Notes: a model not told the origin generated them from the sequence alone. DNA of 64,000 nucleotides from Acidimicrobiales bacterium (GCA_965224435.1 OZ245048.1:1724511-1788510); one strand, 5' to 3'. Counted from the first letter of the stretch, positions 12,046 through 43,685 are shown. A program made the numbers and translations.

Positions 12046-14442
12046 ATGGATTTCACTGTGGCGCCAAGGGATTTCACCATGAGCAGAGGTGATCGGCGGA
12101 AGCGCTCGCAAATTCGGTTACGGACGAGAGGATCGGCCTGTTTCGTCGGGCTTTGTTGCGCCCTTCTGGTTCTGGGTGCTTGCACCTCCAATGGCGAAGG
12201 ATCTGGCGCTCCGGACGATGTTTCGCTTGCCACCGAACCTCCCGGGTTCCCCCAAGACGGCGTTGACAGCACGACCCCTTCTCCTGGCTCCGTAGCCGCC
12301 TCACTCAGCGAGGCCTACGAATTCACTGATCTCGAACTAGGCGGCGGCGGTTGGGTGACCGGAATGGTCATTCACCCGACAGAAGCCGATCTGATGTACG
12401 CCAGAACCGATGTTGGTGGGGCCTACCGCTGGGATCCGACGACCGAACATTGGATCCAACTGTTGTCCTTCGAAACAGTTCCAAACCCCGACCCTGGTGA
12501 TTGGCAGGTCTCATCCGTAGCCACCTCGCCATCGGACCCGGACCGTGCCTATATGGCGGTTGGCGACTCGACCAAGGATTCCGAGGGCCGCATTCTCATT
12601 AGCGACGATCGGGGAGCGACATGGCAAGATCATGGTCGCGGATTCACTATTGCTGGCAACGCCGAAGACAGGATTGGTGGTGAACGCCTAGCGGTTGACC
12701 CGACTGATCCTGACACTGTCTGGTTCGGAAGTCGAAGCGAAGGACTGCTTGTCTCGACTGATGGGTCAGCGACCTGGTCTCCGGTTCCGTCTGTCCCCAT
12801 TGTTGCCGCGGCCGAGGGTGAGAAACCAACGGGGGTGAAATGGGTGCTGGCCAGCGAGTTCGGAGTTTTTGTTGGTATCGCACATGACGGGGTCTATCAG
12901 GTCTCCGGAGAGCCATCTGCTCCTGGCGAAATCACCGCCGAGAAGCTTTGGGCCAGTGAAGGGATTCCCCTCGATGCGGAGATCGGCAGTGACGGTGTGC
13001 TCTGGGTAGCCGAACAGAAGCCGCCCTTTGTCTATCGATTTGACTCGTCCAGTCGCGAGCAACGCGACGTGACCCCGAACGGGGGCAAGAAGTTCGCTTC
13101 CGTCGCCATCGATCCCAACAACCCAAGTCGGGTCTTCATCGGACGTCAGAACATTTCGGACAGCGGTCTATGGAGAACCACCGATAGCGGCGAGAAGTGG
13201 AAGAAGGCGGCGGCGACGACCACCTGCGAGCAGGTCCCTTGGCTGGATGAGTATGACGACCGCTTGTTAAGCGCAGGCAGTATGGCCTTTGACCCAGCGG
13301 GTGAGCTGTGGTTTCCCGAGGGATTCGCCATGTGGCGAAGCACCGACCTTGATGACGGCGAAGTCACTTTCCAGTGCGCGACGCTTGGGATCGAAGAACT
13401 TGTGAGCAACGACGTTCTGGTCACCCCGGCTGGTTCCATTGTTAGCGCCCACTGGGACCGTGGAGCCTTTCGCCATACTGATGGCACACCACAAGGGGCG
13501 ATCCAAGGACCAGTCACCGAATTCAACTCGGTCTGGGATCTTGATTGGAGTCCTGCGGATCCAGATTTTGTGGTTGCAATCGTTGCCGATCACCGTTTCT
13601 GTTGCGAAGACTCATCCGATGCCTACGTCAGCAGCTTCTCCACCGATGGGGGACAGAGCTGGGAACGGTTTGGTTCCTACAAATCGGGCAACCATCCGTA
13701 CAAGCTCAGATTCGGCAATATCGCGGTCTCCGCAACTGACACCAACAATCTGGTGTGGCTCCCAACCTTCAATCTCCCGCCCCAGTTTTCGCGTGATCGC
13801 GGAACAACGTGGTCAGAAGTCATCTTGCCTGGAACCGAAGACATCCAGAAAGACGGGGTCAACCGTGGTGGCTCTCACACCACCTTTTTCCTGAACCGGA
13901 AGGTCCTCGCTGCGGATCGTGTCGCAGCGGACACGTTCTATCTTTATCAGGGAGACTTCGGGGTCTATCGATCCACAGACGGGGGTCAGTCTTGGGCGCT
14001 AATGGCCAGCGATGGTTTACCGATCGGGTCACCAATCGGCCATTTCCATAGCCAATTGCAGGCGGTTCCCGGTGAAGAAGGCCACCTTTTCTTCACCACC
14101 GGTCCGTTGGACCAGGGGGTTTGGCCCGCCTATGAAAGCGTCGATGGTGGAGACTCGTGGACCGAGGTCGACGGAACGGGCGAGGTAACAGCCATCGGAT
14201 TTGGATCTGCTTCCGAGGTTGGTGGGCCAGTCACTGTCTTCCTGGCTGGTGAACTCAATGGAGAGCGAGGCCTATGGAGGTCGATCGATGGTGCCGTAAC
14301 CTGGGGTCTGATTAGTGCGGCTCCTGGAGGAAATTACCTGCCGATTCAGGCCATAACCGGTCACCCAGACGAGTTCGGCACGGTTTTCGTGGCGTTTGGT
14401 GGAACAACAGTCAAAGTTGGAGCGTCTACACAAGGTGAATGA
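12046..14442 (+). CDS. BNR/Asp-box repeat lipoprotein (GH74/sialidase-like beta-propeller)
   Basis: Has a lipobox 'LLVLGAC' after a basic N-terminus, with a likely start at ATG 12079. There are at least 7 Asp-box motifs (SDDRGATW, STDGSATW, TTDSGEKW, STDGGQSW twice, SVDGGDSW, SIDGAVTW). Confidence 0.75.
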   Translation: MDFTVAPRDFTMSRGDRRKRSQIRLRTRGSACFVGLCCALLVLGACTSNGEGSGAPDDVSLATEPPGFPQDGVDSTTPSPGSVAASLSEAYEFTDLELGGGGWVTGMVIHPTEADLMYARTDVGGAYRWDPTTEHWIQLLSFETVPNPDPGDWQVSSVATSPSDPDRAYMAVGDSTKDSEGRILISDDRGATWQDHGRGFTIAGNAEDRIGGERLAVDPTDPDTVWFGSRSEGLLVSTDGSATWSPVPSVPIVAAAEGEKPTGVKWVLASEFGVFVGIAHDGVYQVSGEPSAPGEITAEKLWASEGIPLDAEIGSDGVLWVAEQKPPFVYRFDSSSREQRDVTPNGGKKFASVAIDPNNPSRVFIGRQNISDSGLWRTTDSGEKWKKAAATTTCEQVPWLDEYDDRLLSAGSMAFDPAGELWFPEGFAMWRSTDLDDGEVTFQCATLGIEELVSNDVLVTPAGSIVSAHWDRGAFRHTDGTPQGAIQGPVTEFNSVWDLDWSPADPDFVVAIVADHRFCCEDSSDAYVSSFSTDGGQSWERFGSYKSGNHPYKLRFGNIAVSATDTNNLVWLPTFNLPPQFSRDRGTTWSEVILPGTEDIQKDGVNRGGSHTTFFLNRKVLAADRVAADTFYLYQGDFGVYRSTDGGQSWALMASDGLPIGSPIGHFHSQLQAVPGEEGHLFFTTGPLDQGVWPAYESVDGGDSWTEVDGTGEVTAIGFGSASEVGGPVTVFLAGELNGERGLWRSIDGAVTWGLISAAPGGNYLPIQAITGHPDEFGTVFVAFGGTTVKVGASTQGE

Positions 14443-14529: not shown

Positions 14530-15531
14530 ATGCATTGGACCGTAGCGGCACCGTTCGTCACCAGTCCTACAAGTCAGTGGCTTGCCAGTTCGGTTAGCCA
14601 GGATCACCAACTCACCATTGTTCCCCGCGTCGGTGAACAGGTCAGTTGGCATGACAAGAAATCGCCTGTGACCAGTCCGGCTGAGTGGATCCAGTTCATG
14701 CGCCAGGCCCATCGGGCCGTTTCGCGGACCTCCGGTGGAGTCATCACCGTCTTTCCACAGCTCGCATCCATGGTTGGTGCTCAGAAGCAGCTGCGCCGCA
14801 AGAACGACATGCCCATCGTGAGCTGGTTCTTCAATACTTCGACCGACTCTGCCATCCGCATTGTTCCCGCCCGGCTATCCCTGCGAGCCGTCGACAAGTT
14901 CGTCGTGCATTCCAGTCGCGAGATCGAGGCCTATGCCAGCCAGCTAGCCATCGACCCTGGACGATTCGAGTACGTTCCCCTCCAGTACGGAGGCGACATT
15001 GATGACTCCCCGCTCGAAGAAGAGAAGCCCTTCATCTTCGCCACGGGTTCGGGACACCGTGACTATGCCACCTTCTTTGACGCAGTGGCAAAGACGGGGC
15101 ATCGCACGATCGTTCTGGCATCGGAGCACGCTCTGGCCAATACAACACCGCCGCCCAACGTTGAGATCTTGGAGCAACTTCCAAAGCCTGAGATTCGAAA
15201 GATGATTCGCCGGGCTCGCATCAATGTTGTGCCAATGAGCACCAACGGTCTGACCGCGGGGCTCGTAACCATCGTCGATGCTTTCTGCCACGGCCGTGGC
15301 CTGGTAGCCACTGCTCGACCCGGTGTTGAGGACTATCTTCTTGACAGCGAGAACTCGCTTCTGGTTCCGCCAAGTGATGCGGGGGCGATGGCAGAGGCTC
15401 TCGAAGCCATGTGGGGTGATGACATCCTGCGTCAGCAGCTAAACAAGGGCGCGGCCGCTTTTGCCGAAGCTAATTGCACGGACGCGGCCGCCGGTCGTCG
15501 CCTAAACGAAATCCTCGACTCTCTCTCGTAG
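14530..15531 (+). CDS. GT-B fold glycosyltransferase (GT1/GT4-like)
   Basis: The C-terminal half 'NVVPMSTNGLTAGLVTIVDAFCHGRGLVATARPGVEDYLLDSENSLLVPPSD' matches the nucleotide-sugar binding region of GT1/GT4 enzymes. Confidence 0.65.
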   Translation: MHWTVAAPFVTSPTSQWLASSVSQDHQLTIVPRVGEQVSWHDKKSPVTSPAEWIQFMRQAHRAVSRTSGGVITVFPQLASMVGAQKQLRRKNDMPIVSWFFNTSTDSAIRIVPARLSLRAVDKFVVHSSREIEAYASQLAIDPGRFEYVPLQYGGDIDDSPLEEEKPFIFATGSGHRDYATFFDAVAKTGHRTIVLASEHALANTTPPPNVEILEQLPKPEIRKMIRRARINVVPMSTNGLTAGLVTIVDAFCHGRGLVATARPGVEDYLLDSENSLLVPPSDAGAMAEALEAMWGDDILRQQLNKGAAAFAEANCTDAAAGRRLNEILDSLS

Positions 15532-15599
15532 GTCAACGGTTCACTTTCCGCTTTCGAAATGAACGGCTCCGTCATGAAGACTCCGATCGCTCACCCATT

Positions 15600-16517
15600 A
15601 TGAAGACCCCAATTGCTCTCTACGTCTGCACTCATCAACGCAATGATGAGCTTCAGCGTCTGCTCGACTCGGTTGTCGTTGCCGCAAATGAGGTGATGGA
15701 TCGTGTTGACGTCGCCGTTGTGGTGGTTGATGACAACCCCGATGGTCGGGCTGAGTCTGTTGTCGAAGCCTTCGAGCACAACTTCTCCCTCGGCCTCCAC
15801 TACCGCCTCAGTGGGAAACAGAACATCGCGATCGCCCGAAATATTGGTTTCGAAGCGGCCATGGAACTTGGTGACTGGGTACTCATGACCGATGACGACA
15901 TTGTCATCCCAGCCGATTGGTTTGCTCAGCACCTTGCATTACAAGACAGGACCGGTGCCGATGCCACGACCGGCCCGGCGCTCTTAACCTTTGGGCACGG
16001 AGGCGATTGGATCCGGGAGCAGCCATTTGATCTGGTTGGCCTTCTGGATTACGAAGAAGAGTCAATGCCTCCGGAGTGCTCAACCGGAAACTCTATGGTT
16101 CGGTCCGCATTTTTTGTCGAGCATCCCGAGATCCGCTTTGATCCTGGTCTCGGAATTGCTGGTGGCGAAGACATGGTGTTCTACCGGGGGGCTATTGCGG
16201 CAGGCATGGTGCCGCGATTCTCCAAGAAGGTGGCGGTCTATGAGATCGAACCAGCCAGTCGCTCAACCTATCGATATCAGCTCAGTCGCTCCCTCTGGAT
16301 GGGCAATACCGAGTTCGAAACCAACCTGCGTAGTGGTCAAGCAAGTCGCCTGCGCCTATTCCTTCGGGCGAGCAAACGTGCCCTTGGCGGTCTGAGCCGC
16401 CCGGCCCGTCGTGCTAGCAGGGGCCAGCCGCCCCAGTTTCGCTACGCCGGAGTACTTATTGTGCAAGGAATTGGTATGGGCATTGGCCAGTTCGGCATTG
16501 TCTTGGACCACCGGTAG
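15600..16517 (+). CDS. GT2-family glycosyltransferase
   Basis: Contains 'IALYVCTHQRNDELQRLLDSV', 'VVVVDDNPDG' and a DXD motif in 'LMTDDDIV'. I prefer ATG 15600 over the listed 15474 because the latter overlaps the upstream gene. Confidence 0.8.
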   Translation: MKTPIALYVCTHQRNDELQRLLDSVVVAANEVMDRVDVAVVVVDDNPDGRAESVVEAFEHNFSLGLHYRLSGKQNIAIARNIGFEAAMELGDWVLMTDDDIVIPADWFAQHLALQDRTGADATTGPALLTFGHGGDWIREQPFDLVGLLDYEEESMPPECSTGNSMVRSAFFVEHPEIRFDPGLGIAGGEDMVFYRGAIAAGMVPRFSKKVAVYEIEPASRSTYRYQLSRSLWMGNTEFETNLRSGQASRLRLFLRASKRALGGLSRPARRASRGQPPQFRYAGVLIVQGIGMGIGQFGIVLDHR

Positions 16518-16668
16518 TGATGACTGCGACTGGTTCTGGCCTACGCCACTCACGGGTTCAGCTAGGCCACCTACTAGGTCATAGGGCCTATTGCCTTGGG
16601 CAGAGTATTTTCCATTGGAATCCTCCCCGCCTTCAACGCTACGCTGGAGCGGTGGATTGGGAGTTTTG

Positions 16669-17487
16669 ATGGATATCCGAGCGGTTGTTGGTGCGGCCAG
16701 AGTCAAGGCCGAGCGAAAGGTTGGCGAGACAGTGGCGTCGGTGAGCCGTCGCCTTTCAGGGTCTTCAGAACAACCCCCGGCCAAGACACTCTTCGTGATT
16801 GCCCACGCCCGGTCCGGCTCGACGTTGCTCACCCACCTTCTCGGCGCTCACGATGACATTTTGTCCGTCGGTGAGCATCACGTCAGCTATAGCAAGGATT
16901 CTGACTTGCGCCGGTTGCGCGATCGCAGCGCGTTTATGGCCAATGATCTCAAGGCCCGGCCGATCTATGTCGTTGACAAGATCGTGTACAACGAGCACAC
17001 CATCAGTGATGACCTCCTGCGTGACTCCTCGATCAGGTTCGTGTTCTTGCTGCGACGGCCAGAAGGCACGCTGCCCAGCGTTGGCAAGATGTTCGGCCAG
17101 GCCGACATTGGTCGGCAGCTGGCCTACTACCGTCGGCGTCTCGACGAGATGGTCACCATCGCCAAGAAGGTGGGGGACCCGACCAGGTCGGCCTTCATGA
17201 CCTATGAGCAGATCACGGGCCAGCCCGACGCGACTCTGTCCTACCTCAGCGGCTTTCTTGATCTCGATTCGCCCCTGAATAAGGACTATGACGTCAGCCG
17301 CACGACGGGCCGTCAGGCCTGGGGTGATCCGTCCGAGCGTATCTTCTCTGGCACCATCGATCTGCGCCGCGGTGATTCTGACCCGCTACCAGTTGATATC
17401 GCAGTTGAGGCTGAGGCCATTCACGCCTTCGCCCTGTTTGAATTGGCGAAGCAATCTGCAGCAAATCCCCTGGTTAGCGACTCCTAA
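16669..17487 (+). CDS. sulfotransferase-family protein
   Basis: Has the 5'-PSB loop 'AHARSGSTLL' and the 3'-PB motif 'FLLRRPEGTLPS'. SD 'gggag' lies upstream of ATG 16669 (the listed ORF starts at 16591). Confidence 0.8.
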   Translation: MDIRAVVGAARVKAERKVGETVASVSRRLSGSSEQPPAKTLFVIAHARSGSTLLTHLLGAHDDILSVGEHHVSYSKDSDLRRLRDRSAFMANDLKARPIYVVDKIVYNEHTISDDLLRDSSIRFVFLLRRPEGTLPSVGKMFGQADIGRQLAYYRRRLDEMVTIAKKVGDPTRSAFMTYEQITGQPDATLSYLSGFLDLDSPLNKDYDVSRTTGRQAWGDPSERIFSGTIDLRRGDSDPLPVDIAVEAEAIHAFALFELAKQSAANPLVSDS

Positions 17488-18810
17488 GTGTTGAGCCAGG
17501 TCTCGGACCGAACAACCTCGTCGACCCTGACGACGGCAGACTCTTACTTTGGGCCATGGTCCAGGGGTCTGGGACAGATCTACATTGTTACGGCCATGGT
17601 CACTGCTTTTGGGGCCTATGACATCAAGCCTATGTTCCACACCCTGGTCCTTGGTTTCGCCTTTGGTTGCCTCCTGTTGGCTCCTCGCCAAGCCATTTTG
17701 GACATCCGTGTCTCCCTGATCTCGGTCATGATGTTGTCCCTGGTGGCCGCATCGGTCTTATGGACCTTTGACTCGGTGACGACAACGTTTCTGGTCCGCC
17801 TGGAAGTCCCGCGATCACTGTTTCTACTGCTTGTTATTGCTGTGCTTCCGTTGGAAGACACCATTGCTGGTCTGAAGAAGGCCATATGGGTGATCTTGGG
17901 CATGACCATCATTGGCTTGATTCTGGTGCCGGCTACTCGATCACACGGCATTCTGGCCGGATCGACCGAGCCCTATCCCGGCTGGCATGGCTTCTTCCTG
18001 CACAAGAACTCGATGTCGCCCTATCTGATCTTCGCTCTCAGCACGCTGTTGATTTGGGAAAAGAGCAAGGCAGCTCGAGTTCTTGGATTCCTGACCATCA
18101 TGGTCTTGATGGTGGGATCGCAATCGGGTACCGGCATCGGCGCCAGCCTGTTTGTTATTGCGTTCTATATTTGGGTTGTCATGTACCGGCGCAGCTCGAA
18201 CCGTTGGTCAGGCGGATTCTTGATTGCATCTGTTGGGCTGCTGTTCTGTGCGGCCATTACTGGAGCGGCAGCAATTGGCCAGATCTCCGAATCTGCGGGC
18301 AAGGGCTCGTCCTTCTCGGGCCGAACTTTCATCTGGAGCGCGGTTCTCGATGCCATTAGCCAACGACCCCTTCTGGGCTATGGCTATGGAGGCTTGTTCC
18401 AGAACCCGCCTTCGGATACAACCCGGGAAATATGGCGAAACATCGGGTTTGAGGCCAATCACTCCCATAGCGGAGGATTAGATCTACTGCTACAGCTTGG
18501 TGTTGTTGGCACGGTGCTCTTTGGTGGCCTCTTCGTATCGACCCTGCTCGGTGGGCTCGGGGTCCGAGAGGACGAGCAGCGGATGGCCGACTGGATCCTC
18601 ATCGTTCTGGCTGTGCAAGTTCTCATCAGCCTGTCCGAACCAGTCTTTCTTGGGCCATGGATGCTGGTAATGATGATTCTTCGGGGACTGACCCTCAAGA
18701 CAATGCCATCGTGGCGCCAACGTCATGGACGGGTCGCCACCATTCATGGTGAGCGGGCTCGGATCCGGTCGGAACACGACGACGAGCTTGACTATCAGTC
18801 CGTCGAATAG
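17488..18810 (+). CDS. O-antigen ligase/polymerase family (Wzy_C) membrane protein
   Basis: A polytopic membrane protein with a loop 'FSGRTFIWSAVLDAISQRPLLGYGYGG...NHSHSGGLDLLLQLGVVG'. Its GTG start directly abuts the stop of the upstream sulfotransferase. Confidence 0.8.
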   Translation: MLSQVSDRTTSSTLTTADSYFGPWSRGLGQIYIVTAMVTAFGAYDIKPMFHTLVLGFAFGCLLLAPRQAILDIRVSLISVMMLSLVAASVLWTFDSVTTTFLVRLEVPRSLFLLLVIAVLPLEDTIAGLKKAIWVILGMTIIGLILVPATRSHGILAGSTEPYPGWHGFFLHKNSMSPYLIFALSTLLIWEKSKAARVLGFLTIMVLMVGSQSGTGIGASLFVIAFYIWVVMYRRSSNRWSGGFLIASVGLLFCAAITGAAAIGQISESAGKGSSFSGRTFIWSAVLDAISQRPLLGYGYGGLFQNPPSDTTREIWRNIGFEANHSHSGGLDLLLQLGVVGTVLFGGLFVSTLLGGLGVREDEQRMADWILIVLAVQVLISLSEPVFLGPWMLVMMILRGLTLKTMPSWRQRHGRVATIHGERARIRSEHDDELDYQSVE

Positions 18811-18824
18811 GCGACCAGAAACGA

Positions 18825-18842
18825 GGTGAGATCGATCTCCCC
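18825..18842. terminator. imperfect palindrome between convergent genes (possible bidirectional hairpin)
   Basis: 'ggtGAGATCGATCTCccc' has a perfect 12-nt core palindrome at 18828-18839, located in the 31-nt gap between convergent genes. There is no U-tract. Confidence 0.2.
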
Positions 18843-20176
18843 TAGGTTCGAATGGGGGTGCGACCTGACTGGTTGCCCTTCTCACTGCCCGATTCGTCTG
18901 CGTCTTTGGCTGGGCCATCAGATTCGTCCGCTTGGCGCTGTGCCCGGATAAGCATCAGCCAGCCCCCAACTGCGAGGTAGATCTCGGCCACGATGGTGCC
19001 GATGACGGCACCGCGCCACGAGTAGGAGGGAATGAGGGCGATGTAGAGCACCATGCTCAACGCGGCGGAAGAGATTAGCAGGTAGGCGCGCCGGGAAATG
19101 AGGCCAAGTCCCATGAGCCCGTTGAGTGGTGCGCGACTGATAGCGAGCAGGGGGATCAATGGCACCAGCCAGCGAACGATGTTGACATCGATCTTGTCGG
19201 TTCCTGGCATGAAGCGAAGGAGGATCGGTGTCAGAGTGAACATGGCCAGAGCGATGACCAGGCTCAGGGCTAGGGACGTGCTGGCAAAGCGCTTGGCCCG
19301 GTCAACGTGCAGACCCTTGCGGCCGTCGCCCTCGGGCAAGAATCGCTGGAAGAGGGCCTTGTTCATGGTCTGGATCGGGAACTGGGAGAGCAACACAATA
19401 CGGAAGGCAGCGCCATAGAGGCCAGCGTCGGCCTCTAATCCGTAAACGTTCATGATGGCCTTGTCCCCATTTGTCTGGAGGTTGGAGGCGGCCATTGGTG
19501 TTGACAGCTCGAAATTGGTTCGCACATAGTCCCGGTCAGGCTGCATGAGACCAGGCCGTAATCCGAAGCGAGGTAGCACCAGAAACACTGCGACTGCGCT
19601 GGTGAAGGTGAAGCCGATGAGCCAAGCAATGGCGAGATTCTGGATAGTCATGTCGGCCAAGGTGTAGGTAGCCAGGAGTGAGCCAACACGAACAAGGGGC
19701 AGAGCCAGTCGTATCTTGGCCGACGTTGCGAATCCGTGCGTGGCTTGAATCAGGGTGGTAGCCACATTGGAGATCGGGAAGAGGATGAGTTCAGCAACGG
19801 CCATGAGGAACATGGCGAAGACGGTGACAGTGGAAACAACGAAGGAGGCAATCAGCGTGGCAACACCAACGGCCATGACACCCTGCAAGATGGTCATCCA
19901 GAGGGCGCGACTGCTTACAACCTGCGGGTCATCGTTCAGCTTGATAATGCGTTGTAAGACCAGAAGCTGCAGGCCAGACCAGCTCAGCGCACCAATCGGA
20001 CCAATGACCCCGTAGAAGCCGACGTAGCCGCCATATACCTCGGGTTCGAGGGCATTGAGGAGAAGCAGGAACGAGATGATGTTGGCTACAAGGCTCAGTC
20101 CGTCACCAAGCCCACTCCAAGCCACATCTCCCATCATCTCGCCGTAGCGACGGAAAAGCCCTCGAACCCGAGTCAT
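18842..20176 (-). CDS. MOP-superfamily oligosaccharide flippase (Wzx-like)
   Basis: A 444-aa protein with about 12-14 predicted TM segments. The N-terminus '...DVAWSGLGDGLSLVANIISFLLLLNALEPEVYGGY' is typical of polysaccharide biosynthesis/flippase proteins. Confidence 0.75.
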   Translation of the reverse strand: MTRVRGLFRRYGEMMGDVAWSGLGDGLSLVANIISFLLLLNALEPEVYGGYVGFYGVIGPIGALSWSGLQLLVLQRIIKLNDDPQVVSSRALWMTILQGVMAVGVATLIASFVVSTVTVFAMFLMAVAELILFPISNVATTLIQATHGFATSAKIRLALPLVRVGSLLATYTLADMTIQNLAIAWLIGFTFTSAVAVFLVLPRFGLRPGLMQPDRDYVRTNFELSTPMAASNLQTNGDKAIMNVYGLEADAGLYGAAFRIVLLSQFPIQTMNKALFQRFLPEGDGRKGLHVDRAKRFASTSLALSLVIALAMFTLTPILLRFMPGTDKIDVNIVRWLVPLIPLLAISRAPLNGLMGLGLISRRAYLLISSAALSMVLYIALIPSYSWRGAVIGTIVAEIYLAVGGWLMLIRAQRQADESDGPAKDADESGSEKGNQSGRTPIRT

Positions 20177-21087
20177 GAGGCGGCCAGACTATTCGGAGAG
20201 CAGGGCGGCAGATTTTCTTGCAAGTCGTCGACCCAGACGGGACGGAGAGATCCGGTCACTGTCGCAAAGTTCGCACAATCCAAGGGTGTTCCGAGCCAGG
20301 AACCGAGTTGTAAAAGGTCATGGTCAAAAACTTCACTCAGCCTGGCAATGTCATGATCAGACAGGACCGGCTTTGGTCCGGCCCGCCATTGATTCCGAAT
20401 CCGGTTCACGAGAGACTCTGGGGCAAGTCGTCGAAGCAGATCATAGAGCGGAGCCGACTTCAACCGCTCACGAACCGTGCTGCTGGCTAGCCGTTCGGCG
20501 GTGACATTGTGCTGACGTGTCGCGTCCCAGACGGGCGTTCCCTGGTAGCCAAGAAAGCCGCAGACGCGCTCAAGCTCAGCCTGGGGATCTTTCAACAGAT
20601 GATCAAAGAAAACTGGCAAGACGGACTCGGTGCCAAATCTGGTGAGGTAGGGGAGTAGCTGCTTGCTGTAGCAGCTGTACTCGATCAGCTCCGGATTGCT
20701 CCCGCTGATCGCAACTTCCAGTGGCTCGTGGATTTCTCCCTCCAGCTGCATGTGCTGGTACTGGGAGACAAGCCGGTCAATGGGGTGGCGCATCACATAG
20801 ATGAAGCGAGGATTGTCAATGGTGGCGGCCAGGCGCTCGATGGTGCGGGGGTAGGTGGGGAGTTTGGAGTAATGAGTGCTGGACTCGCCGCAGAGATCGG
20901 TCGGAACAGCCCCGTCGAAGTGGGATGCGTACCACTCCAGTCCTTGATCCCAGACTGCGTCATCGCTAAAGAAGTACAGCTCCTTGGGCTGGCTCATCGA
21001 GAGACCGGGTTGAGCTGCTAATTGCTCGTGCAAGGTCGAGGTCGCAGCTTTCATCGCTCCAATGATAAAGAAATCTGGGAATCGCAT
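20173..21087 (-). CDS. sulfotransferase-family protein
   Basis: Has the 5'-PSB loop 'FFIIGAMKAATSTLHEQL' and the 3'-PB motif 'YVMRHPIDRLVSQY'. It overlaps the flippase start by 4 nt. Confidence 0.8.
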   Translation of the reverse strand: MRFPDFFIIGAMKAATSTLHEQLAAQPGLSMSQPKELYFFSDDAVWDQGLEWYASHFDGAVPTDLCGESSTHYSKLPTYPRTIERLAATIDNPRFIYVMRHPIDRLVSQYQHMQLEGEIHEPLEVAISGSNPELIEYSCYSKQLLPYLTRFGTESVLPVFFDHLLKDPQAELERVCGFLGYQGTPVWDATRQHNVTAERLASSTVRERLKSAPLYDLLRRLAPESLVNRIRNQWRAGPKPVLSDHDIARLSEVFDHDLLQLGSWLGTPLDCANFATVTGSLRPVWVDDLQENLPPCSPNSLAAS

Positions 21088-21384
21088 CGAAAGGTTGGTC
21101 CCGAGAGTGGACGGAAGAGGTAACGGTCAGCAGTGGCGGGCGTGCATCTTGATGGTGAATCCATCGGTCGTTTGAGGAAGGAGATGAGGGTCGACAGGCG
21201 GGACGGACCACAATAGGCAGCGTTCACTGAATGGACCGTGTTCCCAGATTAGGTCGGGTTTGCACCCGTGTGAAGGCGTGCGACTGGGTAAATGTCGAAA
21301 CACCGGGCTGTATGGCACAAGGAGACGTGGGTCGCTTGGCGTGCTTGTCGGATATCTCGGCCTAGGTAAAAGCGACCAGTTGGC

Positions 21385-21401
21385 AGAAACTCGCGGTTTC
21401 T
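21385..21401. promoter_or_regulatory. inverted repeat AGAAAC-N5-GTTTCT in a divergent intergenic region (candidate operator)
   Basis: Perfect 6-bp arms sit at 21385-21390 and 21396-21401, about 70 nt upstream of ATG 21471. They lie in the 383-bp gap between divergent sulfotransferase genes. Confidence 0.2.
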
Positions 21402-21470
21402 CTCAAGCCGCCAGGTGAGAAGCCGATTAACTAGGGGTACCGCGTACTGCTCGAGGAGTACAAGACAGCA

Positions 21471-22424
21471 ATGATTCAATCCCCAGTGTTCCTAGTTGGC
21501 GCCGAGCGCTCTGGTACCACCATGCTCCATCTGATGTTGGACTCTCACCCCGAGATTACCGGGTGTGAAGGTTTCGAGTTCATGGTTGAGATGGTCGGGG
21601 AGCAGGGCGAGCGTCCTGAGCTGGCGGAGTATTATGAGTATCTGTCGCGGCATGCAATCTTCGGCACGTCGGAACTGTCGATCGACCGCAGCCTTGATTA
21701 CGACTCGCTGGTGAATAACTTCCTCGAACAGCGTCATGGTGCAGGCAACCAGGACCAACCAGTCATCCCTATGGTCCACTTTGGATTCTCCCGCCTCCTT
21801 CACATTTGGCCCGAGGCTCGATTCATCCACCTGGTACGAGATCCCCGCGACGTGACCAGCTCGGTCATCGAGATGGGTTGGGCGGGAACCGTTTGGCATG
21901 GCTTGGACAAGTGGATTGAGTCCGAAGACGAATGGACCGATTTTGCCAGACGGATCGATGCTTCCAAGTTCGTCGAGCTTCGCTATTCTGACCTCATCGC
22001 CGATCACCCAACAGAGCTCGGCAAGGTTTGTGACTTCCTGGGCCTGGCCTACACCGATGAGATGATGTCCTACGCCAAGGAGACCGAATACACGGTTCCT
22101 GACCCGTCCCGAGTCGAAGCCTGGAAGGCAAAGCTCAACACTGACCAGCTCTCCCTGGTCGAAGGGCGGGTGGCCCAGATGATGACGGATCGTGGTTTCG
22201 CCCTGAGCGGCGGGCCCATGCGTCAACCTGCTGGAATCGAACGATTCCGGCTGCAATGGCAGAACCGACTGGTCAAATGGAAGATGCGACTCGATCGTTT
22301 CGGGCCTCGCCTGTTCGTCGAAAGCCTCCTGATCCGGGTCATTCCCGTTGATTCCTATCACAAGTCGGTTCAGCTACGGACCAACAAGGTCGAGCGATCA
22401 CGGCGGAAGAAGTCATGGCGCTAA
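21471..22424 (+). CDS. sulfotransferase-family protein
   Basis: Has the 5'-PSB loop 'FLVGAERSGTTMLHLML' and the 3'-PB motif 'IHLVRDPRDVTSS'. Confidence 0.8.
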   Translation: MIQSPVFLVGAERSGTTMLHLMLDSHPEITGCEGFEFMVEMVGEQGERPELAEYYEYLSRHAIFGTSELSIDRSLDYDSLVNNFLEQRHGAGNQDQPVIPMVHFGFSRLLHIWPEARFIHLVRDPRDVTSSVIEMGWAGTVWHGLDKWIESEDEWTDFARRIDASKFVELRYSDLIADHPTELGKVCDFLGLAYTDEMMSYAKETEYTVPDPSRVEAWKAKLNTDQLSLVEGRVAQMMTDRGFALSGGPMRQPAGIERFRLQWQNRLVKWKMRLDRFGPRLFVESLLIRVIPVDSYHKSVQLRTNKVERSRRKKSWR

Positions 22425-22459
22425 ACTCCAACAATCCCCAATCAGGAAGACTCTGACCG

Positions 22460-24412
22460 GTGGAACTCTCCTTTGTAATTGCAGCCCTGCGGCGTAACGG
22501 CTGGGTCATCATTGTTTGCAGTGTGCTTGGCTTTTTCGCCTCGCTCAGTATCGAACCGCCTCGAGCCCAGTTCGAAAGCAATGGACTTCTCCTACTTTCG
22601 CCCTCGGGATTTGATGGTGGAGTCGCCTACGCCAACCAGCCCGATCGTTTCGTGCTGACCCAGCTTGGTGTGTTGCAGGCTGAGGGCTTGGCGGAACGAG
22701 TGGCCGAGCGAGTCAACGCCGGATCGAGCTTGGAAGAAACGGCAGGCTCGGTAAGTCGCAATACCGAGATGACGCAGAATCTTGATAGCGACACCGTCAA
22801 TATCGCTACCACCACTGGCCAAGAGCTACGCTCCCAGCTGATCGCCCAGGCCTACTTGGATCTCTATATTGAAGAGGCTAGGGCAACTGTTGAAGGCACC
22901 AGCCAGCCCGAATTGGAACGCTTGGACAATGATATCGACGAGGTTGAGAGCGAACTCACCAGCGTTCAGCAGCAGATCGTCTCTGTCATGGCTCCGTTCT
23001 TGCCCAGCACATCCGATGAAATCACCAAGCAGATCCCACCTCTGAGCATTGTCGCTCCTGAGTTGGCCACGCGTTTGGAAAATCTCACAGCCCAACTCAA
23101 GGCTCTGAATCTGAGCCGGATCGCTCTGGAATCCGAAGTTTTCTCCAGCTTCAACTCCATTATTGTTCAGGACGCCACCCTGCCGGTGAGTGCCATTGGT
23201 AACTCGACAGCGTTGCTGACAGCGGCCCTGGTCTTTGTCGCCACCACCCTTGGTTTCATCATTGCCTTGGTCTGGACCCGTTTCTCTGATCGTGTCCTGG
23301 ATGACCTGCAGGCCTCGGAGATCCTTGGTATGCCCATTGTCGGCGAGTTGGACCACGCTCGTGCGCTTCGCCGCTCGCCGCTGGTTGCCTTTGACAACTT
23401 GCCGAGCTCACTCATCCCCGTTATTGATCAGTTGTCGGTGCGGGCCGAGGCCCTTGGTTCGGTGACCGAGCCGCTCACCGTCGCTGTTGTCGGTACCCAG
23501 CGGGTGGCGGGAACAACGACCTTGGCCACTGCCATGGCTGGCCGCTTCAGTGCGGCTGAGTTTGAGGTTGTGCTGGTCGACCTGGATGCCAGCGATCCGT
23601 ACTTGTCCGAGGCCTTTGGTGGCATTCGTGGCGAAGGCTTGGCAGCAGTCTTCACTCCGAATCCGGAGCGAGCATTCATTCGCACCGGCCGGACCGGCGT
23701 GACCCTGTTGGGTCGTGGTCACCGGGCCGTCTCGATCCGTCGTGACCTGGTCGGTGAAGTCCTGGACGTCGCTAAGAGCCGAGCTCATATTGTCATCATC
23801 GATGCCGGTTCGGTGCTTGATGCTGCGGCCACGGTCGAACTCTGTGATCTTGTCGATGCTGTTGTACTGGCGGTTCCCTTGCGTCGCCAGGAAACCCGCC
23901 CCCTTGGACACGTTGCTCGTCAGTTCGAGCCCATCACGAAAAAGGTCTTGCCCATCATCACCCATCCGATGGCCAAACGAGCTGCCTTGTCATCAGACAA
24001 TAGTCACGCTGCTCCTGAGACGATCGAAGAAGCCATCGTGCCGACAACTCCGCCGACCCCTCGCCAAGCGCTTCCGCCCGAGCCGTCTGAACCGGCTGAG
24101 CCATATGTGGAGCCAATCGAGACACCAGCCAATAGCAAATCCTCAGCTCGGTCCGAATCGGCCAAGAAAGGATCAACACAGTCAGGATCAACAAAGTCAG
24201 GGTCAACAAAGTCGGGACCCGCAAGGTCTGAAACGGATACCTCCGGGTCGCGGAAACCAAAGAATGACCGGACCAAGAGTGATCGTACGAAGAGCGACCG
24301 CACCAAGAACGGCCGCAAGCGTAGTGAACAATCGACATCGGGGAATAGCTCATCGGGAAGCTCGTCCTCCGAGTCTGATCAGTCCGGCAGCGGTTCCCGC
24401 TCAAGGTCCTGA
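22460..24412 (+). CDS. Wzz-type chain-length determinant fused to a degenerate BY-kinase-like P-loop domain and a Ser/Lys/Thr-rich tail
   Basis: Has an N-terminal Wzz-like TM 'WVIIVCSVLGFFASL', a coiled-coil ectodomain and a second TM 'LLTAALVFVATTLGFIIALVW'. The P-loop region 'VAVVGTQRVAGTTTLA' has no Walker-A Lys. The other motifs are 'VLVDLDASDP' and 'IVIIDAGS'. The last ~100 aa are rich in S, K, T and R and contain no Tyr. Confidence 0.7.
   Translation: MELSFVIAALRRNGWVIIVCSVLGFFASLSIEPPRAQFESNGLLLLSPSGFDGGVAYANQPDRFVLTQLGVLQAEGLAERVAERVNAGSSLEETAGSVSRNTEMTQNLDSDTVNIATTTGQELRSQLIAQAYLDLYIEEARATVEGTSQPELERLDNDIDEVESELTSVQQQIVSVMAPFLPSTSDEITKQIPPLSIVAPELATRLENLTAQLKALNLSRIALESEVFSSFNSIIVQDATLPVSAIGNSTALLTAALVFVATTLGFIIALVWTRFSDRVLDDLQASEILGMPIVGELDHARALRRSPLVAFDNLPSSLIPVIDQLSVRAEALGSVTEPLTVAVVGTQRVAGTTTLATAMAGRFSAAEFEVVLVDLDASDPYLSEAFGGIRGEGLAAVFTPNPERAFIRTGRTGVTLLGRGHRAVSIRRDLVGEVLDVAKSRAHIVIIDAGSVLDAAATVELCDLVDAVVLAVPLRRQETRPLGHVARQFEPITKKVLPIITHPMAKRAALSSDNSHAAPETIEEAIVPTTPPTPRQALPPEPSEPAEPYVEPIETPANSKSSARSESAKKGSTQSGSTKSGSTKSGPARSETDTSGSRKPKNDRTKSDRTKSDRTKNGRKRSEQSTSGNSSSGSSSSESDQSGSGSRSRS
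24170..24322 (+). repeat. two blocks of 15-bp in-frame repeats in the tail of the pseudo-kinase
   Basis: Positions 24170-24214 hold 'ggatcaacacagtca/ggatcaacaaagtca/gggtcaacaaagtcg', encoding GSTQS GSTKS GSTKS. Positions 24263-24322 hold four units encoding NDRTK SDRTK SDRTK NGRKR with synonymous differences. Confidence 0.85.
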
Positions 24413-24569: not shown

Positions 24570-25391
24570 ATGATGAAGGACAGAGCAGTGTCTGAACAGG
24601 TTTCCCCCAGTGACATCCCAGTTGTGATCCTCTGCGGAGGGCAAGGAACCCGAATTCGGGAAGCATCCGAGAGCCTGCCCAAACCGTTGATCGATATTGG
24701 CGGCAAGCCAATCCTTTGGCACATCATGAAGAGTTACCACTCTCATGGTTTTCGCCGCTTCATTCTCTGCCTGGGGTACAAGGGCTGGAATATCAAAGAA
24801 TACTTCCTTCGATATCAAGAGAATGTCTCGGACTTCACTCTCGAACTCAGTTCCGGCACCGGCCCCAACTTCCACGGCCACGGTACTGACGACTTTGAGG
24901 TGTCACTGGTCGACACCGGTCTGAATACCGGAACTGGCGGTCGCATTCCCAAGATAGCCCACCTGCTGGATCAGGACTATTTCATGCTCACCTATGGCGA
25001 TGGCCTTGGTCCCGTCAATGTTGGGGATGAGCTCCAACAACTGGCTAGTTCAGACAACCTCGGCATGGTGACCGGCGTTCACCCAACCTCTCGTTTTGGT
25101 GAATTGCACTGTGTCGACGGCATGGTTGAGAACTTCGCGGAGAAGCCAGCCTCAACCGGCTGGGTATCTGGCGGGTTCTTTGCCTTCCGCAAGGAGTTCC
25201 TGGACTACCTGGACCCCGAGGACCCTGACCAGATGTTGGAAAGTCAGCCGCTACAACAGCTGGCTCGAGACGGCAAGCTCTCCATGTACGAACATGAAGG
25301 TTTCTGGATGGGCATGGACACCTTCCGTGAATACACCGCATTGAATGAGATGTGGGCCGCCGATGAAGCTCCTTGGAAGACCTGGGAGTAG
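24570..25391 (+). CDS. rfbF: glucose-1-phosphate cytidylyltransferase
   Basis: Similar along its length to my recollection of enterobacterial RfbF/DdhA. Matching segments include 'VVILCGGQGTRIRE...KPLIDIGGKPILWHIMKSY...LGYKG..IKEYF' and an identical C-terminal 'APWKTWE'. Confidence 0.92.
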   Translation: MMKDRAVSEQVSPSDIPVVILCGGQGTRIREASESLPKPLIDIGGKPILWHIMKSYHSHGFRRFILCLGYKGWNIKEYFLRYQENVSDFTLELSSGTGPNFHGHGTDDFEVSLVDTGLNTGTGGRIPKIAHLLDQDYFMLTYGDGLGPVNVGDELQQLASSDNLGMVTGVHPTSRFGELHCVDGMVENFAEKPASTGWVSGGFFAFRKEFLDYLDPEDPDQMLESQPLQQLARDGKLSMYEHEGFWMGMDTFREYTALNEMWAADEAPWKTWE

Positions 25392-25432
25392 CCACCAGTG
25401 ATCGGTGGGGCGAAGCAAACGGGAAGTATTCG

Positions 25433-26329
25433 ATGACGATGATGTCGGCATCGGTCATCATCCCCGCTCACAACGAAGAGGCCACTATTGAGGCTTGCCT
25501 TGACGCGGTCTTGGCCAGTGAATTGTCTTCTGGTGCTGTTACTGACCTAGACATTGTGGTTGTCGCCAATGGGTGTACCGACAAGACAGCCGTCATTGTC
25601 GAAGGCTACGCGGCTCCCGTGCGCTTGATCGACACGCCGGTTGGCTCCAAAGCCAATGCTCTCGAACTTGGTCGGGCCGCTACCCAGCCGGGCAATCGGA
25701 TCTACCTGGATGCTGACATCGTGGTGTCGCCTGACGCCATCGATTCTGTCCTGAAGTCGCTGAATAGCGACGGCATCGAAGGCTCAGCACCCCGGATTGA
25801 CCTGGCTCAACCGCAGTCGGCCAGCCTGCCGCTGCGCCAGTACGCCCGGATCTGGGAGCAGGCTCCCTACTTCGGCTCTGGACTCATTGGCTCCGGTTTC
25901 TATGGTCTGACCGAAGAAGCTCAGACCAGGATTGGTGGCTGGCCTAGCTTGATCGCTGATGATCTGGTGGCACTTTGCCACCTCAAGCCCCAAGAGCGGC
26001 AGACAGCTGCTGGCTGGTTCCGCCACACCTTGCCCAGCCGGCTACGAGATGTAGCCAAGGTGGAGGTTCGTCGCGAGGCTGGACGAATGGAGTTTGCTGC
26101 CTGGGCAGACGCTGAGGGCCGCTCGGTGGCCGAAGAAAGCCCGGGAGGGAACTGGCTCGGTGAGCTGGCCCGCAGCCCGAAGAACTGGCCAGGACTTGGA
26201 TTGTTTGTAGCGGTCAAGGTGGTGGCCAAGATCCGGGCCAAACGTGCTTTTGATGGCGGCAGCATTGCCTGGGGACAGGATCAGCATGGTCGTTCGCTGC
26301 GCGCCCGTGACGCAGCGTCGACTGAGTAG
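25433..26329 (+). CDS. GT2-family glycosyltransferase
   Basis: Contains 'SVIIPAHNEEATIEACLDAVL', 'IVVVANGCTDKTA' and 'YLDADIVV'. I chose ATG 25433 to avoid overlap with rfbF (the listed ORF starts at 25373). Confidence 0.8.
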   Translation: MTMMSASVIIPAHNEEATIEACLDAVLASELSSGAVTDLDIVVVANGCTDKTAVIVEGYAAPVRLIDTPVGSKANALELGRAATQPGNRIYLDADIVVSPDAIDSVLKSLNSDGIEGSAPRIDLAQPQSASLPLRQYARIWEQAPYFGSGLIGSGFYGLTEEAQTRIGGWPSLIADDLVALCHLKPQERQTAAGWFRHTLPSRLRDVAKVEVRREAGRMEFAAWADAEGRSVAEESPGGNWLGELARSPKNWPGLGLFVAVKVVAKIRAKRAFDGGSIAWGQDQHGRSLRARDAASTE

Positions 26330-27697: not shown

Positions 27698-27705
27698 GAA
27701 TCTGC

Positions 27706-43383: not shown

Positions 43384-43685
43384 GAGCGTAGGACCCTTGT
43401 CCCTGCTTGCCTTTGAGAGCGGGCAATTCGACTCTATGAGTGCCTACCAGGCATATCAAGCGTTTGGTCAGACTGATGTTGCCGAGCCCGATGAGCTGGA
43501 GGGCTTGTGTGAAGAGAAGCGGGGGCGTTGTTGGTCTGAGAGCTTACGATTGCACCATCAGAGTCGATGGGTTCAGAAGGGAATACTATGAGCGACGGCA
43601 AAAACTGCCCGTTCCTGGCAGTACTACCTCAGCGTGAATGGGCAGTTGGCTCGTCCACCCGATATCGCTACCGCGGAGAACTCCT

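Follow-up and report, generated by a model that had tools for sequence, protein, structure and literature searches.

An uncultured marine actinobacterium, a monoderm whose genome sequence is the source of the locus described here, carries a surface-polysaccharide gene module on its chromosome beside dnaE. Within the 64-kb stretch of DNA that was analysed (the window), this module occupies approximately 10.6-31.2 kb and encodes Wzx, Wzy, a co-polymerase, four glycosyltransferases, a priming transferase, a CDP-6-deoxyhexose pathway and three sulfotransferases, designated ST1 through ST3. The flippase, polymerase, co-polymerase, priming transferase, glycosyltransferase and CDP-sugar genes are contiguous. 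Features are given by window coordinate and strand.

10609..11997, plus: GT4 glycosyltransferase, XssI-like (Pfam Glyco_trans_1_4, 4e-35)
12046..14442, plus: exported BNR/sortilin-repeat protein (Pfam Sortilin-Vps10 and BNR)
14530..15531, plus: GT4 glycosyltransferase (Glyco_trans_1_4, 4e-10; 95% amino acid identity in related locus L001)
15600..16517, plus: GT2 glycosyltransferase (Pfam Glycos_transf_2, 7.5e-15)
16669..17487, plus: ST1, sulfotransferase of a third, uncharacterised subfamily (Sulfotransfer_3, 42 bits)
17488..18810, plus: Wzy-type polymerase with a Wzy_C domain (Pfam Wzy_C, 1.2e-18)
18842..20176, minus: Wzx/MOP-family flippase, 444 aa (alignment to the window's Polysacc_synt protein)
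20173..21087, minus: ST2, XssA-type, heparan-sulfate-sulfotransferase-like carbohydrate sulfotransferase (54% identity to XssA)
21088..21470, no strand: divergent ST2-ST3 intergenic region (leader kept in close relatives)
21471..22424, plus: ST3, XssE-type (TPST/CurM-ST-like) sulfotransferase (Sulfotransfer_3, 5.7e-35)
22460..24412, plus: polysaccharide co-polymerase whose P-loop (kinase-like) domain is degenerate and whose tail is rich in Ser and Lys (topology, weak HMMs)
24570..25391, plus: glucose-1-phosphate cytidylyltransferase-like enzyme (TIGR02623, 273 bits, just below the 300-bit cut-off; Pfam NTP_transferase)
25373..26329, plus: GT2 glycosyltransferase (Glycos_transf_2, 9e-17)
26402..27787, minus: DRL-type NAD(P) oxidoreductase, a candidate sugar reductase (Pfam DRL_cat, 1.6e-53)
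27706..28254, minus: RmlC-type 3,5-epimerase (TIGR01221, 168 bits; cut-off 156)
28251..29360, minus: CDP-glucose 4,6-dehydratase (TIGR02622, 493 bits; cut-off 278)
29566..31248, plus: priming polyprenyl-phosphate glycosylphosphotransferase (TIGR03025, 358 bits; cut-off 296)

Assembly and export genes

The first-pass annotation of this DNA described the sulfotransferase genes as interleaved with a Wzy-like polymerase and a flippase, and both proteins are indeed found between them. The polymerase carries the Wzy_C domain and approximately ten hydrophobic segments. The flippase has no Pfam or NCBIfam match of its own. Its sequence contains multiple transmembrane segments and aligns end to end (BLASTP, E 6e-18) with the Polysacc_synt protein encoded at 54565-55818 in the window, and its orthologues, including one in related locus L013, match PF01943. 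By this transitive sequence evidence, the 444-aa protein is a MOP/Wzx homologue.

Translational coupling had also been claimed, and the junctions have the form described. The TAA stop codon of ST1 (17485-17487) is followed directly by the GTG of the polymerase gene (17488), whereas the flippase and ST2 genes share a 4-nt ATGA overlap at 20173-20176 on the minus strand. Both junctions recur in the orthologous loci L002 and L008. The flippase and ST2 genes lie on the minus strand and point away from ST3; the first-pass annotation did not spell out these strands.

Downstream of ST3, the co-polymerase has a loop of approximately 200 aa between two transmembrane segments and gives weak NCBIfam matches to tyrosine autokinase and chain-length models. 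Its Walker A sequence, AGTTT, lacks the Lys, and its tail has no Tyr cluster. The priming transferase also matches Pfam Bac_transf (9e-65), and its catalytic domain is 45% identical to XssP of the xss cluster of Synechocystis, discussed below. The XssI-like GT4 enzyme is 48% identical to Synechocystis XssI over 421 aa, nearly the whole protein, and its gene is the first past dnaE, as it is in three related loci (L002, L005 and L008). For the GT2 gene at 15600..16517, the in-frame ATG at 15600 is the likely start (orthologues are called at 305 aa), while the mechanical ORF begins at TTG 15474.

The BNR protein has an N-terminal hydrophobic anchor (residues 27-50) and is conserved in four related loci (L001, L008, L010 and L013). 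It matches the NCBIfam model for the F510_1955 family glycosylhydrolase at 1.6e-25, below the cut-off, and its sequence suggests that it is probably a glycosidase-like enzyme that processes the polymer.

Three sulfotransferases from distinct subfamilies

ORFs for all three proposed sulfotransferases are present as annotated, and so are the PAPS-binding motifs attributed to them: ARSGST and RRPEGTLPS in ST1, MKAATST and RHPIDRLVS in ST2, and ERSGTT and RDPRDVTSS in ST3. In each protein, the 5′-phosphosulfate-binding (PSB) loop (RSGST, KAATST and RSGTT, respectively) follows the pattern [KR]-x-[GA]-x-[ST]-[ST]. Each exceeds the Pfam gathering cut-offs (27 and 22 bits) of the models it matches, Sulfotransfer_3 and, for ST2 and ST3, also Sulfotransfer_1. 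Only these two families are matched, and no Pfam match to the Stf0-type family (the LpsS type) is seen for ST1, ST2 or ST3, with ST1 searched to E 10. Structural comparison agrees, in that ST1 and ST3 are both predicted to adopt a sulfotransferase fold and the ST2 sequence directly matches sulfotransferases of solved structure. Judged from their sequences, ST1 through ST3 are real sulfotransferases, mutually unrelated and belonging to three distinct subfamilies. No signal peptide or membrane segment is found in any of them, and no fourth sulfotransferase is found in the window.

ST2 scores 63 bits with Sulfotransfer_3 and 47 bits with Sulfotransfer_1, and its 54% identity to Synechocystis XssA (sll5042) extends over 283 aa, the full length. 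Its sequence matches in the PDB include 3rnl (4e-16) and HS 3-OST-1 (2e-12). Residues K13, E36, R100 and S108 are invariant among 45 homologues, and T16 of the PSB loop is invariant or near-invariant in the family alignment. E36 aligns with the Glu in the NEVHFFD segment of HS 3-OST-1, which we take to be the catalytic Glu90. With the HS 3-O-sulfotransferases/NDST and with bacterial 3rnl, ST2 has in common an aligned PSB Lys (K13), the 3′-PB Arg/Ser and, as a candidate catalytic residue, the aligned Glu E36. The animal enzymes, however, modify finished glycosaminoglycan chains in the Golgi, whereas ST2 is predicted to be cytoplasmic, and its presumed substrate is a lipid-linked repeat unit.

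ST3 gives the strongest Pfam match (Sulfotransfer_3, 122 bits; Sulfotransfer_1, 46 bits) and is 38% identical to Synechocystis XssE (sll5046) over 309 aa, again the full length. Its AF2 model has a pLDDT of 94.6, and the best 50 PDB fold matches to this model are sulfotransferases only. In the family alignment, R13, S14, G15 and T17 are invariant or near-invariant, R123 is invariant and S131 is near-invariant. Where TPST2 and CurM-ST carry their catalytic Glu, the aligned residue in ST3 and throughout its clade is Gly (Gly34); E33 lies next to it, and E36 close by is near-invariant.

The Sulfotransfer_3 match of ST1 (E 1.6e-10) is limited to the N-terminal stretch and covers only the loop there. 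All orthologues start at the equivalent of ATG 16669, giving 272 aa, while the mechanical ORF starts at TTG 16591. The AF2 model is of medium confidence (pTM 0.73, pLDDT 68.7), and its best 45 PDB fold matches are PAPS sulfotransferases only. The ST1 family comprises 1334 representative clusters, and all 52 members sampled match PF13469. Invariant positions in its alignment are R48 and S51 (PSB) and R129 and S137 (3′-PB), with E69, D103 and K104 near-invariant. E69, a candidate catalytic Glu, is the counterpart of the PPELH Glu when ST1 is aligned to the CurM-ST domain.

For both ST1 and ST3, the nearest solved structures belong to TPST1/2 and to the polyketide sulfotransferases of CurM and OLS, rather than to sugar sulfotransferases. 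These proteins share with ST1 and ST3 the same fold, an R-S-G-[ST]-T PSB loop and the 3′-PB motif. They are known to sulfate tyrosine or beta-hydroxyacyl groups, whereas the context of ST1 and ST3 is glycan synthesis. ST3 differs further by approximately 90 additional C-terminal residues that form two long helices, a feature in common with XssE.

Counterparts in relatives and in characterized clusters

The module is syntenic in related metagenome genomes, and its sulfotransferases are under purifying selection there, with dN/dS values of 0.07 (ST1), 0.12 (ST2) and 0.04 (ST3) as computed against a genome that is only 79% identical in DNA and in which gene order is conserved. The same gene order is found in relatives of approximately 60% identity, and the core, in which the flippase and XssA-like genes diverge from the XssE-like gene, is kept at approximately 50% identity. 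Both two- and three-sulfotransferase versions of the locus occur among relatives. ST1 is missing from the former, and in the relatives' loci examined ST3 is always paired divergently with an XssA-type sulfotransferase gene next to wzx.

To our knowledge, the xss (synechan) cluster is the only bacterial sulfated-exopolysaccharide cluster that has been genetically dissected. In Synechocystis sp. PCC 6803 it produces synechan, a sulfated exopolysaccharide (EPS) with approximately two sulfates per eight sugars, and contains two sulfotransferases, XssA and XssE (Maeda et al. 2021, PMC8205485), which we identified as sll5042 and sll5046 by their pSYSM coordinates. Knockout of xssA reduces EPS to 10% of wild type, whereas knockout of xssE barely changes the yield; support for both enzymes is genetic and compositional, and we found no published enzymology (PMC8205485).

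The locus described here resembles xss in being Wzx/Wzy-dependent, with embedded sulfotransferases of different subfamilies, four homologous protein pairs (ST2, ST3, the first GT4 enzyme and the priming transferase, at the identities given above) and a 6-deoxyhexose, which is rhamnose in synechan and a product of the CDP-6-deoxyhexose pathway here. The two also differ. The xss cluster resides on a megaplasmid in a host of another phylum, has eight glycosyltransferases rather than four or five, has a different gene order, and has no counterpart of the ST1 subfamily. The regulators XssQ, XssR and XssS have no BLASTP match at E 1e-5 when compared with every window ORF of 150 aa or more. No OPX exporter (XssT/Poly_export-type) family occurs among the scanned window ORFs, as expected for a monoderm host, and XssT is unlinked to xss in Synechocystis as well (PMC8205485).

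A second relevant system is wps-1 of the soil actinomycete Actinoplanes missouriensis (PMC13390465, 2026), likewise a Wzx/Wzy cluster with sulfotransferases of different families and a glycoside hydrolase. One sulfotransferase in each locus is heparan-sulfate-sulfotransferase-like, a likeness that for WpsB/WpsH is taken from their published description, and in both cases the sulfated polysaccharide is predicted from genes (PMC13390465). In contrast to the present locus, wps-1 has two sulfotransferases rather than three, is tied to sporangium development and is reported to have an adjacent sulfate adenylyltransferase/APS kinase gene (PMC13390465). Sulfotransferases also occur in a cluster for a GAG-like EPS in Pontiella sulfatireligans (PMC7356697), and Sinorhizobium meliloti LpsS is an LPS sulfotransferase annotated as Stf0-family (cited in PMC12445080). 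Both illustrate sulfotransferase-modified surface glycans outside cyanobacteria, and their descriptions place them in enzyme families, pathways and phyla other than those considered here (PMC7356697, PMC12445080).

Thus, with xss (2021), Actinoplanes (2026) and Pontiella published, and with two- and three-sulfotransferase versions in relatives, sulfotransferase-bearing glycan clusters are less exceptional than the first-pass annotation implied. What we judge to be new is a locus with XssA- and XssE-type sulfotransferases in another phylum, together with an extra sulfotransferase type, ST1.

A predicted sulfated polysaccharide and alternative readings

The proposal that this three-sulfotransferase Wzx/Wzy locus specifies a sulfated polysaccharide is supported by the HMM matches, the folds, the conservation of the PAPS loops and the complete gene context. 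We consider it likely that the 10.6-31.2 kb module is a complete Wzx/Wzy-dependent heteropolysaccharide locus whose product is sulfated by cytoplasmic, PAPS-dependent enzymes before flipping. A sulfated glycan is predicted because two of the three sulfotransferases match those of synechan.

Under this proposal, a repeat unit of approximately five sugars, including a CDP-derived 6-deoxyhexose, would be assembled by the four glycosyltransferases together with the priming transferase (29566), with undecaprenyl phosphate as its carrier on the cytoplasmic side. ST1, ST2 and ST3, as soluble cytoplasmic proteins, would move sulfate from PAPS to hydroxyls at different positions of the lipid-linked unit, and basic amphipathic helices (N-terminal in ST1, C-terminal in ST3) may keep these two enzymes close to the membrane. 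The sulfated unit would then be exported by the MOP flippase and polymerised by Wzy, with the co-polymerase setting chain length, and trimming or release of the polymer may fall to the exported BNR protein. The first-pass annotation took three sulfotransferases to imply multi-site sulfation of the repeat unit; we regard such sulfation as inferred. The xssE knockout barely changes EPS yield in Synechocystis, and the ST3 clade has Gly at the position aligned with the catalytic Glu.

The product might be a sulfated glycan with another destination. It could be a capsule or a glycopolymer anchored to the wall, or the Wzy_C protein, acting as a ligase/O-oligosaccharyltransferase, could attach an oligosaccharide to protein or S-layer. 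This alternative is a variant of the favored reading that differs only in product fate. Wzy_C proteins can be ligases instead of polymerases, and Pfam Wzy_C, as an 'O-antigen ligase' family, does not separate the two. The presence of four Wzy_C proteins and three to four glycan loci in the window suggests a division of labour, and the organism is a monoderm with no outer-membrane exporter present. On this reading, the glycan could stay attached to the wall or form a capsule instead of being released as exopolysaccharide. However, a dedicated co-polymerase directly after ST3 implies polymerisation with chain-length control, and the homologues of XssA, XssE and XssI belong to a secreted EPS system. 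Such a fate strikes us as credible but unlikely.

It is also doubtful, though conceivable, that only some of the sulfotransferases modify the glycan, with ST1 and/or ST3 acting on peptide or protein tyrosine (as TPST and RaxST do) or on a lipid or small molecule (as for CurM-ST and Stf-type enzymes), or being catalytically impaired. The structural neighbors of ST1 and ST3, the Gly in the ST3 clade, the two-sulfotransferase relatives that dispense with ST1 and the mild effect of xssE loss (PMC8205485) would all fit such a division. Against it, ST1 is translationally linked to wzy through a conserved junction, ST3 keeps its divergent XssA-type partner beside wzx, and strong purifying selection acts on both proteins. 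Moreover, two sulfotransferases go with two sulfates per repeat in synechan (PMC8205485), and no candidate peptide or polyketide substrate gene lies nearby.

PAPS supply bears on the last alternative. As the first-pass annotation noted, the window holds no PAPS synthesis genes: the APS kinase, ATP sulfurylase and CysD/H families are absent among the approximately 48 ORFs scanned, and no PAP-phosphatase gene lies within the 64 kb. This absence might suggest that the sulfotransferase-fold proteins transfer no sulfate, as pseudo-enzymes or users of another donor, and that the polymer is unsulfated, but such an outcome is highly improbable given that hundreds of homologues in each of three independent subfamilies keep both phosphate-binding motifs invariant or nearly so, that dN/dS is 0.04-0.12, and that PAPS genes are normally unlinked to such glycan loci, including the xss region itself.

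A minor observation concerns the spacer between ST2 and ST3 (21088..21470), which shows no promoter-consensus enrichment and no Rfam match. The leader of ST3 is not retained in the related loci L008, L010 or L013, while the last approximately 115 nt upstream of the ST3 ATG are approximately 95% identical among the window, L001 and L002.

The three sulfotransferases

The first-pass annotation of this window described three sulfotransferase genes interleaved with a Wzx/Wzy module and proposed that the locus makes a sulfated polysaccharide. The observation is confirmed, with all three open reading frames borne out at the coordinates listed here, and the interpretation, taken as a prediction, is supported.

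Principal features of the locus (about 10.6-31.2 kb)
10609-11997, GT4 glycosyltransferase (GT4a)
16669-17487, plus strand, sulfotransferase ST1
17488-18810, Wzy gene, encoding a Wzy_C domain and about 10 hydrophobic segments
18842-20176, minus strand, 444-aa membrane protein, predicted divergent Wzx flippase
20173-21087, minus strand, sulfotransferase ST2
21471-22424, plus strand, sulfotransferase ST3
22460-24412, plus strand, 650-aa protein best read as a co-polymerase (PCP)

The PAPS-binding signatures quoted for these genes, a 5'-PSB loop and a 3'-PB motif, are all found in the three proteins. All three score above the Pfam gathering threshold of Sulfotransfer_3; ST2 and ST3 pass that of Sulfotransfer_1 as well. 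Pairwise, the three share at most 25% identity (E 1e-5 or worse), and they are not paralogues of each other. A fourth sulfotransferase in the window was considered and rejected, and none was found. The proposed translational coupling also rests on real junctions. Specifically, the ST1 stop codon directly adjoins the GTG of the Wzy gene at 17488, and the ST2 stop on the minus strand shares ATGA (20173-20176) with the ATG of the next gene. Orthologous loci have both junctions as well, a pattern that fits co-translation but falls short of proof.

ST2 directly matches solved carbohydrate sulfotransferases, namely bacterial 3rnl (E 4e-16) and heparan sulfate 3-O-sulfotransferase-1 (E 2e-12), with its PSB lysine, the Glu of K-E-L-Y-F-F and the R...S motif all aligned. 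Across 45 homologues with 48-87% identity, residues K13, T16, K35, E36, R100, S108 and H112 are invariant. One homologue is a sulfotransferase encoded on pSYSM of Synechocystis sp. PCC 6803 (40411..41316, complement), which by its coordinates is sll5042, or xssA, of the xss cluster that produces synechan; xss gene identities were taken from the pSYSM coordinates in NC_005229.1. ST2 and XssA are 54% identical over 283 residues. XssA-type proteins with 50-58% identity also occur in metagenome-assembled genomes (MAGs) labelled Pseudomonadota, Phycisphaerales, Isosphaeraceae, Promineifilaceae and Sandaracinaceae.

ST3 yields a high-confidence structural model (pLDDT 94.6, pTM 0.91) whose 50 top-ranked fold matches in the PDB are without exception PAPS sulfotransferases, headed by the OLS and CurM polyketide sulfotransferase domains and the tyrosylprotein sulfotransferases TPST1/2. 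Over 309 residues it shares 38% identity with the second sulfotransferase of pSYSM (43343..44293), which is sll5046, or xssE. Most members of the XssE family carry Glu, within the motif xEFEY, where the catalytic Glu of TPST2 and CurM-ST aligns, whereas ST3 and its ten nearest relatives have C-E-G-F-E-F (residues 32-37). This clade has Gly at the aligned catalytic position, with Glu33 one residue before it and a near-invariant Glu36 two residues after.

ST1, which begins at ATG 16669 as in every orthologue, is the weakest Pfam match of the three (42 bits), with an alignment limited to the N-terminal loop. A word-indexed search returned only four close homologues, giving the appearance of a near-orphan that a profile search overturned. 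Among 1.84 billion representatives, the profile matches 1334 at E <= 1e-3, of which 162 reach E <= 1e-30; almost all are 220-310 aa long. In an alignment of family members 25-42% identical to ST1, R48, S51, R129 and S137 do not vary, and G50, E69, D103 and K104 are nearly invariant; together these span both phosphate-binding motifs plus a candidate base, and E69 aligns with the Glu in the PPELH segment of CurM-ST. The quality of the ST1 model is medium (pLDDT 68.7, pTM 0.73), and all 45 of its top PDB matches are sulfotransferases. Because every sampled relative (52 of 52) matches Sulfotransfer_3, the motifs are invariant and the top 45 fold matches are exclusively sulfotransferases, ST1 is a genuine member of the superfamily. 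We could find no characterised representative of its subfamily, and ST1 points to a sizeable uncharacterised group of 1334 representative clusters.

Neighbouring genes and a predicted pathway

The 444-aa membrane protein has no Pfam or NCBIfam match, even at E up to 10, and does not match the MatE-like protein of the window. Its alignment with the Polysacc_synt protein at 54565-55818 runs from end to end (E 6e-18), its orthologues match PF01943, and we read it as a divergent Wzx. The 650-aa protein downstream of ST3 has two membrane segments enclosing a loop of about 200 residues, together with a cytoplasmic P-loop-like domain that weakly matches tyrosine autokinases. Its Walker A sequence (AGTTT) is without lysine, and its C-terminal tail of about 130 residues is of low complexity and rich in Ser, Lys and Thr; it has short repeats (TKSGS, DRTKS) and lacks a tyrosine cluster. 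The best reading of the protein is a co-polymerase whose kinase domain is probably inactive. In this it resembles a pseudo-kinase PCP, in contrast to the window's two other PCP/BY-kinase-like proteins at 40268-41923 and 49323-51011.

Upstream of ST1 lie two GT4 genes, a GT2 gene (likely start 15600) and a gene for an exported BNR/sortilin-repeat protein. GT4a shares 48% identity with XssI across 421 residues. Downstream of the co-polymerase are genes for a glucose-1-P cytidylyltransferase-like protein, a GT2, a DRL-type oxidoreductase and an RmlC-type epimerase, followed by those for a CDP-glucose 4,6-dehydratase, which scores 493 bits where the cut-off is 278, and an EPS-type priming transferase. 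Counterparts of XssQ, XssR and XssS were sought in the window, and none was found.

PAPS is a cytoplasmic metabolite, and the three sulfotransferases have neither a signal peptide nor a membrane segment, so sulfation would have to precede flipping. The most likely substrate would be the undecaprenyl-diphosphate-linked repeat unit. Wzx would then export the sulfated unit, Wzy would polymerise it and the co-polymerase would regulate chain length. One primer and four glycosyltransferases suggest a repeat of about five sugars, for which three sulfates is an upper bound. The N-terminal helix of ST1 (residues 3-29) and the C-terminal helix of ST3 (255-287) show strong amphipathicity (µH 0.62 and 0.65, net charge +5 each) and, more speculatively, might serve as membrane tethers. 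Sulfation of a lipid-linked repeat unit has likewise been proposed for synechan (Maeda et al., 2021; PMC8205485).

Relation to known sulfated polysaccharides

Sulfated polysaccharides, heparin-like and carrageenan-like polymers among them, are prized as materials and influence the marine cycles of carbon and sulfur. Synechan contains Rha, Man, Gal, Glc and sulfate at about 1:1:1:5:2, and its cluster encodes two sulfotransferases; an xssA knockout makes 10% of wild-type EPS and no longer forms blooms, whereas an xssE knockout keeps 77% (PMC8205485). The locus described here is likewise a predicted Wzx/Wzy sulfated-polysaccharide locus, and it has homologues of XssA, XssE and XssI in common with xss. 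It differs in belonging to another, Gram-positive phylum, in being without the cyanobacterial regulators and in having an additional, uncharacterised sulfotransferase subfamily. The evidence supports its assignment to the xss-type class, with sulfation of the product as a prediction.

Both Maeda et al. (2021) and a 2026 study of Actinoplanes missouriensis (PMC13390465) state that among bacteria sulfated polysaccharides are exclusive to cyanobacteria. That claim is already contradicted by the sulfated GAG-like exopolymers of Pontiella (Kiritimatiellae), whose cluster includes a sulfotransferase (PMC7356697), and by Sinorhizobium LPS, sulfated by LpsS (as cited in PMC12445080). The Actinoplanes study also offered wps-1, a Wzx/Wzy cluster with two sulfotransferases compared with three here, as the first hint in actinomycetes, without chemical proof (PMC13390465). 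Comparable predictions have been published, and the locus is not a new mechanism. It ties a non-cyanobacterial, Gram-positive lineage to the sole dissected bacterial system through three shared enzymes.

Our fullest reading, which we advance tentatively and rate somewhat short of an even chance, is that the surface heteropolysaccharide of an uncultured marine actinomycetote is densely sulfated. Each repeat, of about five sugars with a 6-deoxyhexose among them, would carry up to three sulfates, made by means of the XssA/XssE/XssI trio shared with synechan and a third, uncharacterised sulfotransferase subfamily. If true, this would be the first demonstrated Wzx/Wzy sulfated polysaccharide in a Gram-positive bacterium, and the synechan sulfation toolkit would be a cross-phylum module, against the cyanobacteria-only claim. 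ST1, ST2 and ST3 are also compact candidate enzymes for sulfated-glycan engineering.

Conservation and genomic setting

The window opens with lspA, rluD, a nitroreductase gene, a bacterial proteasome activator (PF10759), a CAP/DUF4214 protein and dnaE, a neighbour set that points to an actinomycetotal host. Named homologues of ST3 come mostly from Acidimicrobiia/Acidimicrobiales MAGs and from cyanobacteria, and a literature search for Acidimicrobiia and sulfotransferases found nothing relevant. The nearest named relative, 'MAG: Actinomycetes bacterium isolate Dive100_bin2.26', is collinear with positions 11458-24626 at 79% DNA identity and 77-95% amino-acid identity, with dN/dS of 0.07 (ST1), 0.12 (ST2), 0.04 (ST3), 0.07 (Wzy) and 0.05 (Wzx). 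'Dive100' samples belong to a Southwest Indian Ridge hydrothermal vent study, the main text of which does not name bin2.26.

The order dnaE-GT4-BNR-GT4-GT2-ST1-Wzy-Wzx-ST2 is common to the window, an ENA assembly (L002) and a relative with about 60% identity (L008). In more distant relatives the site is still beside dnaE and has a core in which Wzx and an XssA-like gene are divergent from an XssE-like gene, and the rest differs. Positions 10609-31248 of the window and the corresponding sites in two such loci, L010 (6513-21017) and L013 (2386-16641), hold different glycan gene sets, and only this core, an XssI-like GT4 and a BNR protein are constant. L010 has two sulfotransferases and is without ST1; L013, with three, carries a second XssE-type paralogue as its third. 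By these comparisons the locus behaves like a hypervariable surface-glycan site, capsule or O-antigen like, with a conserved sulfation core. In L002 (labelled 3x coverage) the BNR orthologue falls in three called genes (5369-7765), probably through assembly frameshifts rather than as a pseudogene.

Nearly all genes from 10.6 kb to the window end serve glycan synthesis, and this stretch amounts to three or four consecutive glycan loci. Together they encode four Wzy_C proteins, three co-polymerase-like proteins, three MOP-like transporters, two Bac_transf primers plus WecG, and three beta-helix proteins. Positions 31259-62874 hold two or three more Wzx/Wzy-type loci in unbroken series, with a DUF4012 protein and several family-less ORFs (55826-56842, 61930-62874); no sulfotransferase was found in these loci.

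Wzy_C and beta-helix proteins of these additional loci
41920-43383, 50972-52351 and 60591-61940, Wzy_C proteins
37077-38969, 53122-54447 and 56991-58727, secreted right-handed beta-helix proteins

Rfam and tRNA scans gave no matches, and a promoter and terminator consensus scan gave no enrichment over shuffles. The last ~115 nt before the ST3 start (21355-21470) are about 95% identical in the window, the Dive100 MAG and L002, compared with 79% for the loci overall, and contain the palindromes AGAAAC-N5-GTTTCT and GTACT-N8-AGTAC; the stretch is a possible operator or 5' leader, and its conservation does not extend to more distant relatives. G+C content is about 57% along the entire window, and antisense ORFs of 698 aa inside dnaE (7891-9987, minus strand) and 289 aa inside ST3 (21492-22361, minus strand) were treated as artefacts of G+C-rich coding sequence. 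At the likely GT2 start, an imperfect short direct duplication, ATGAAGACTCCGATCGCTC...ATGAAGACCCCAATTGCTC, spans 15574-15620, its first copy out of frame with the ORF.
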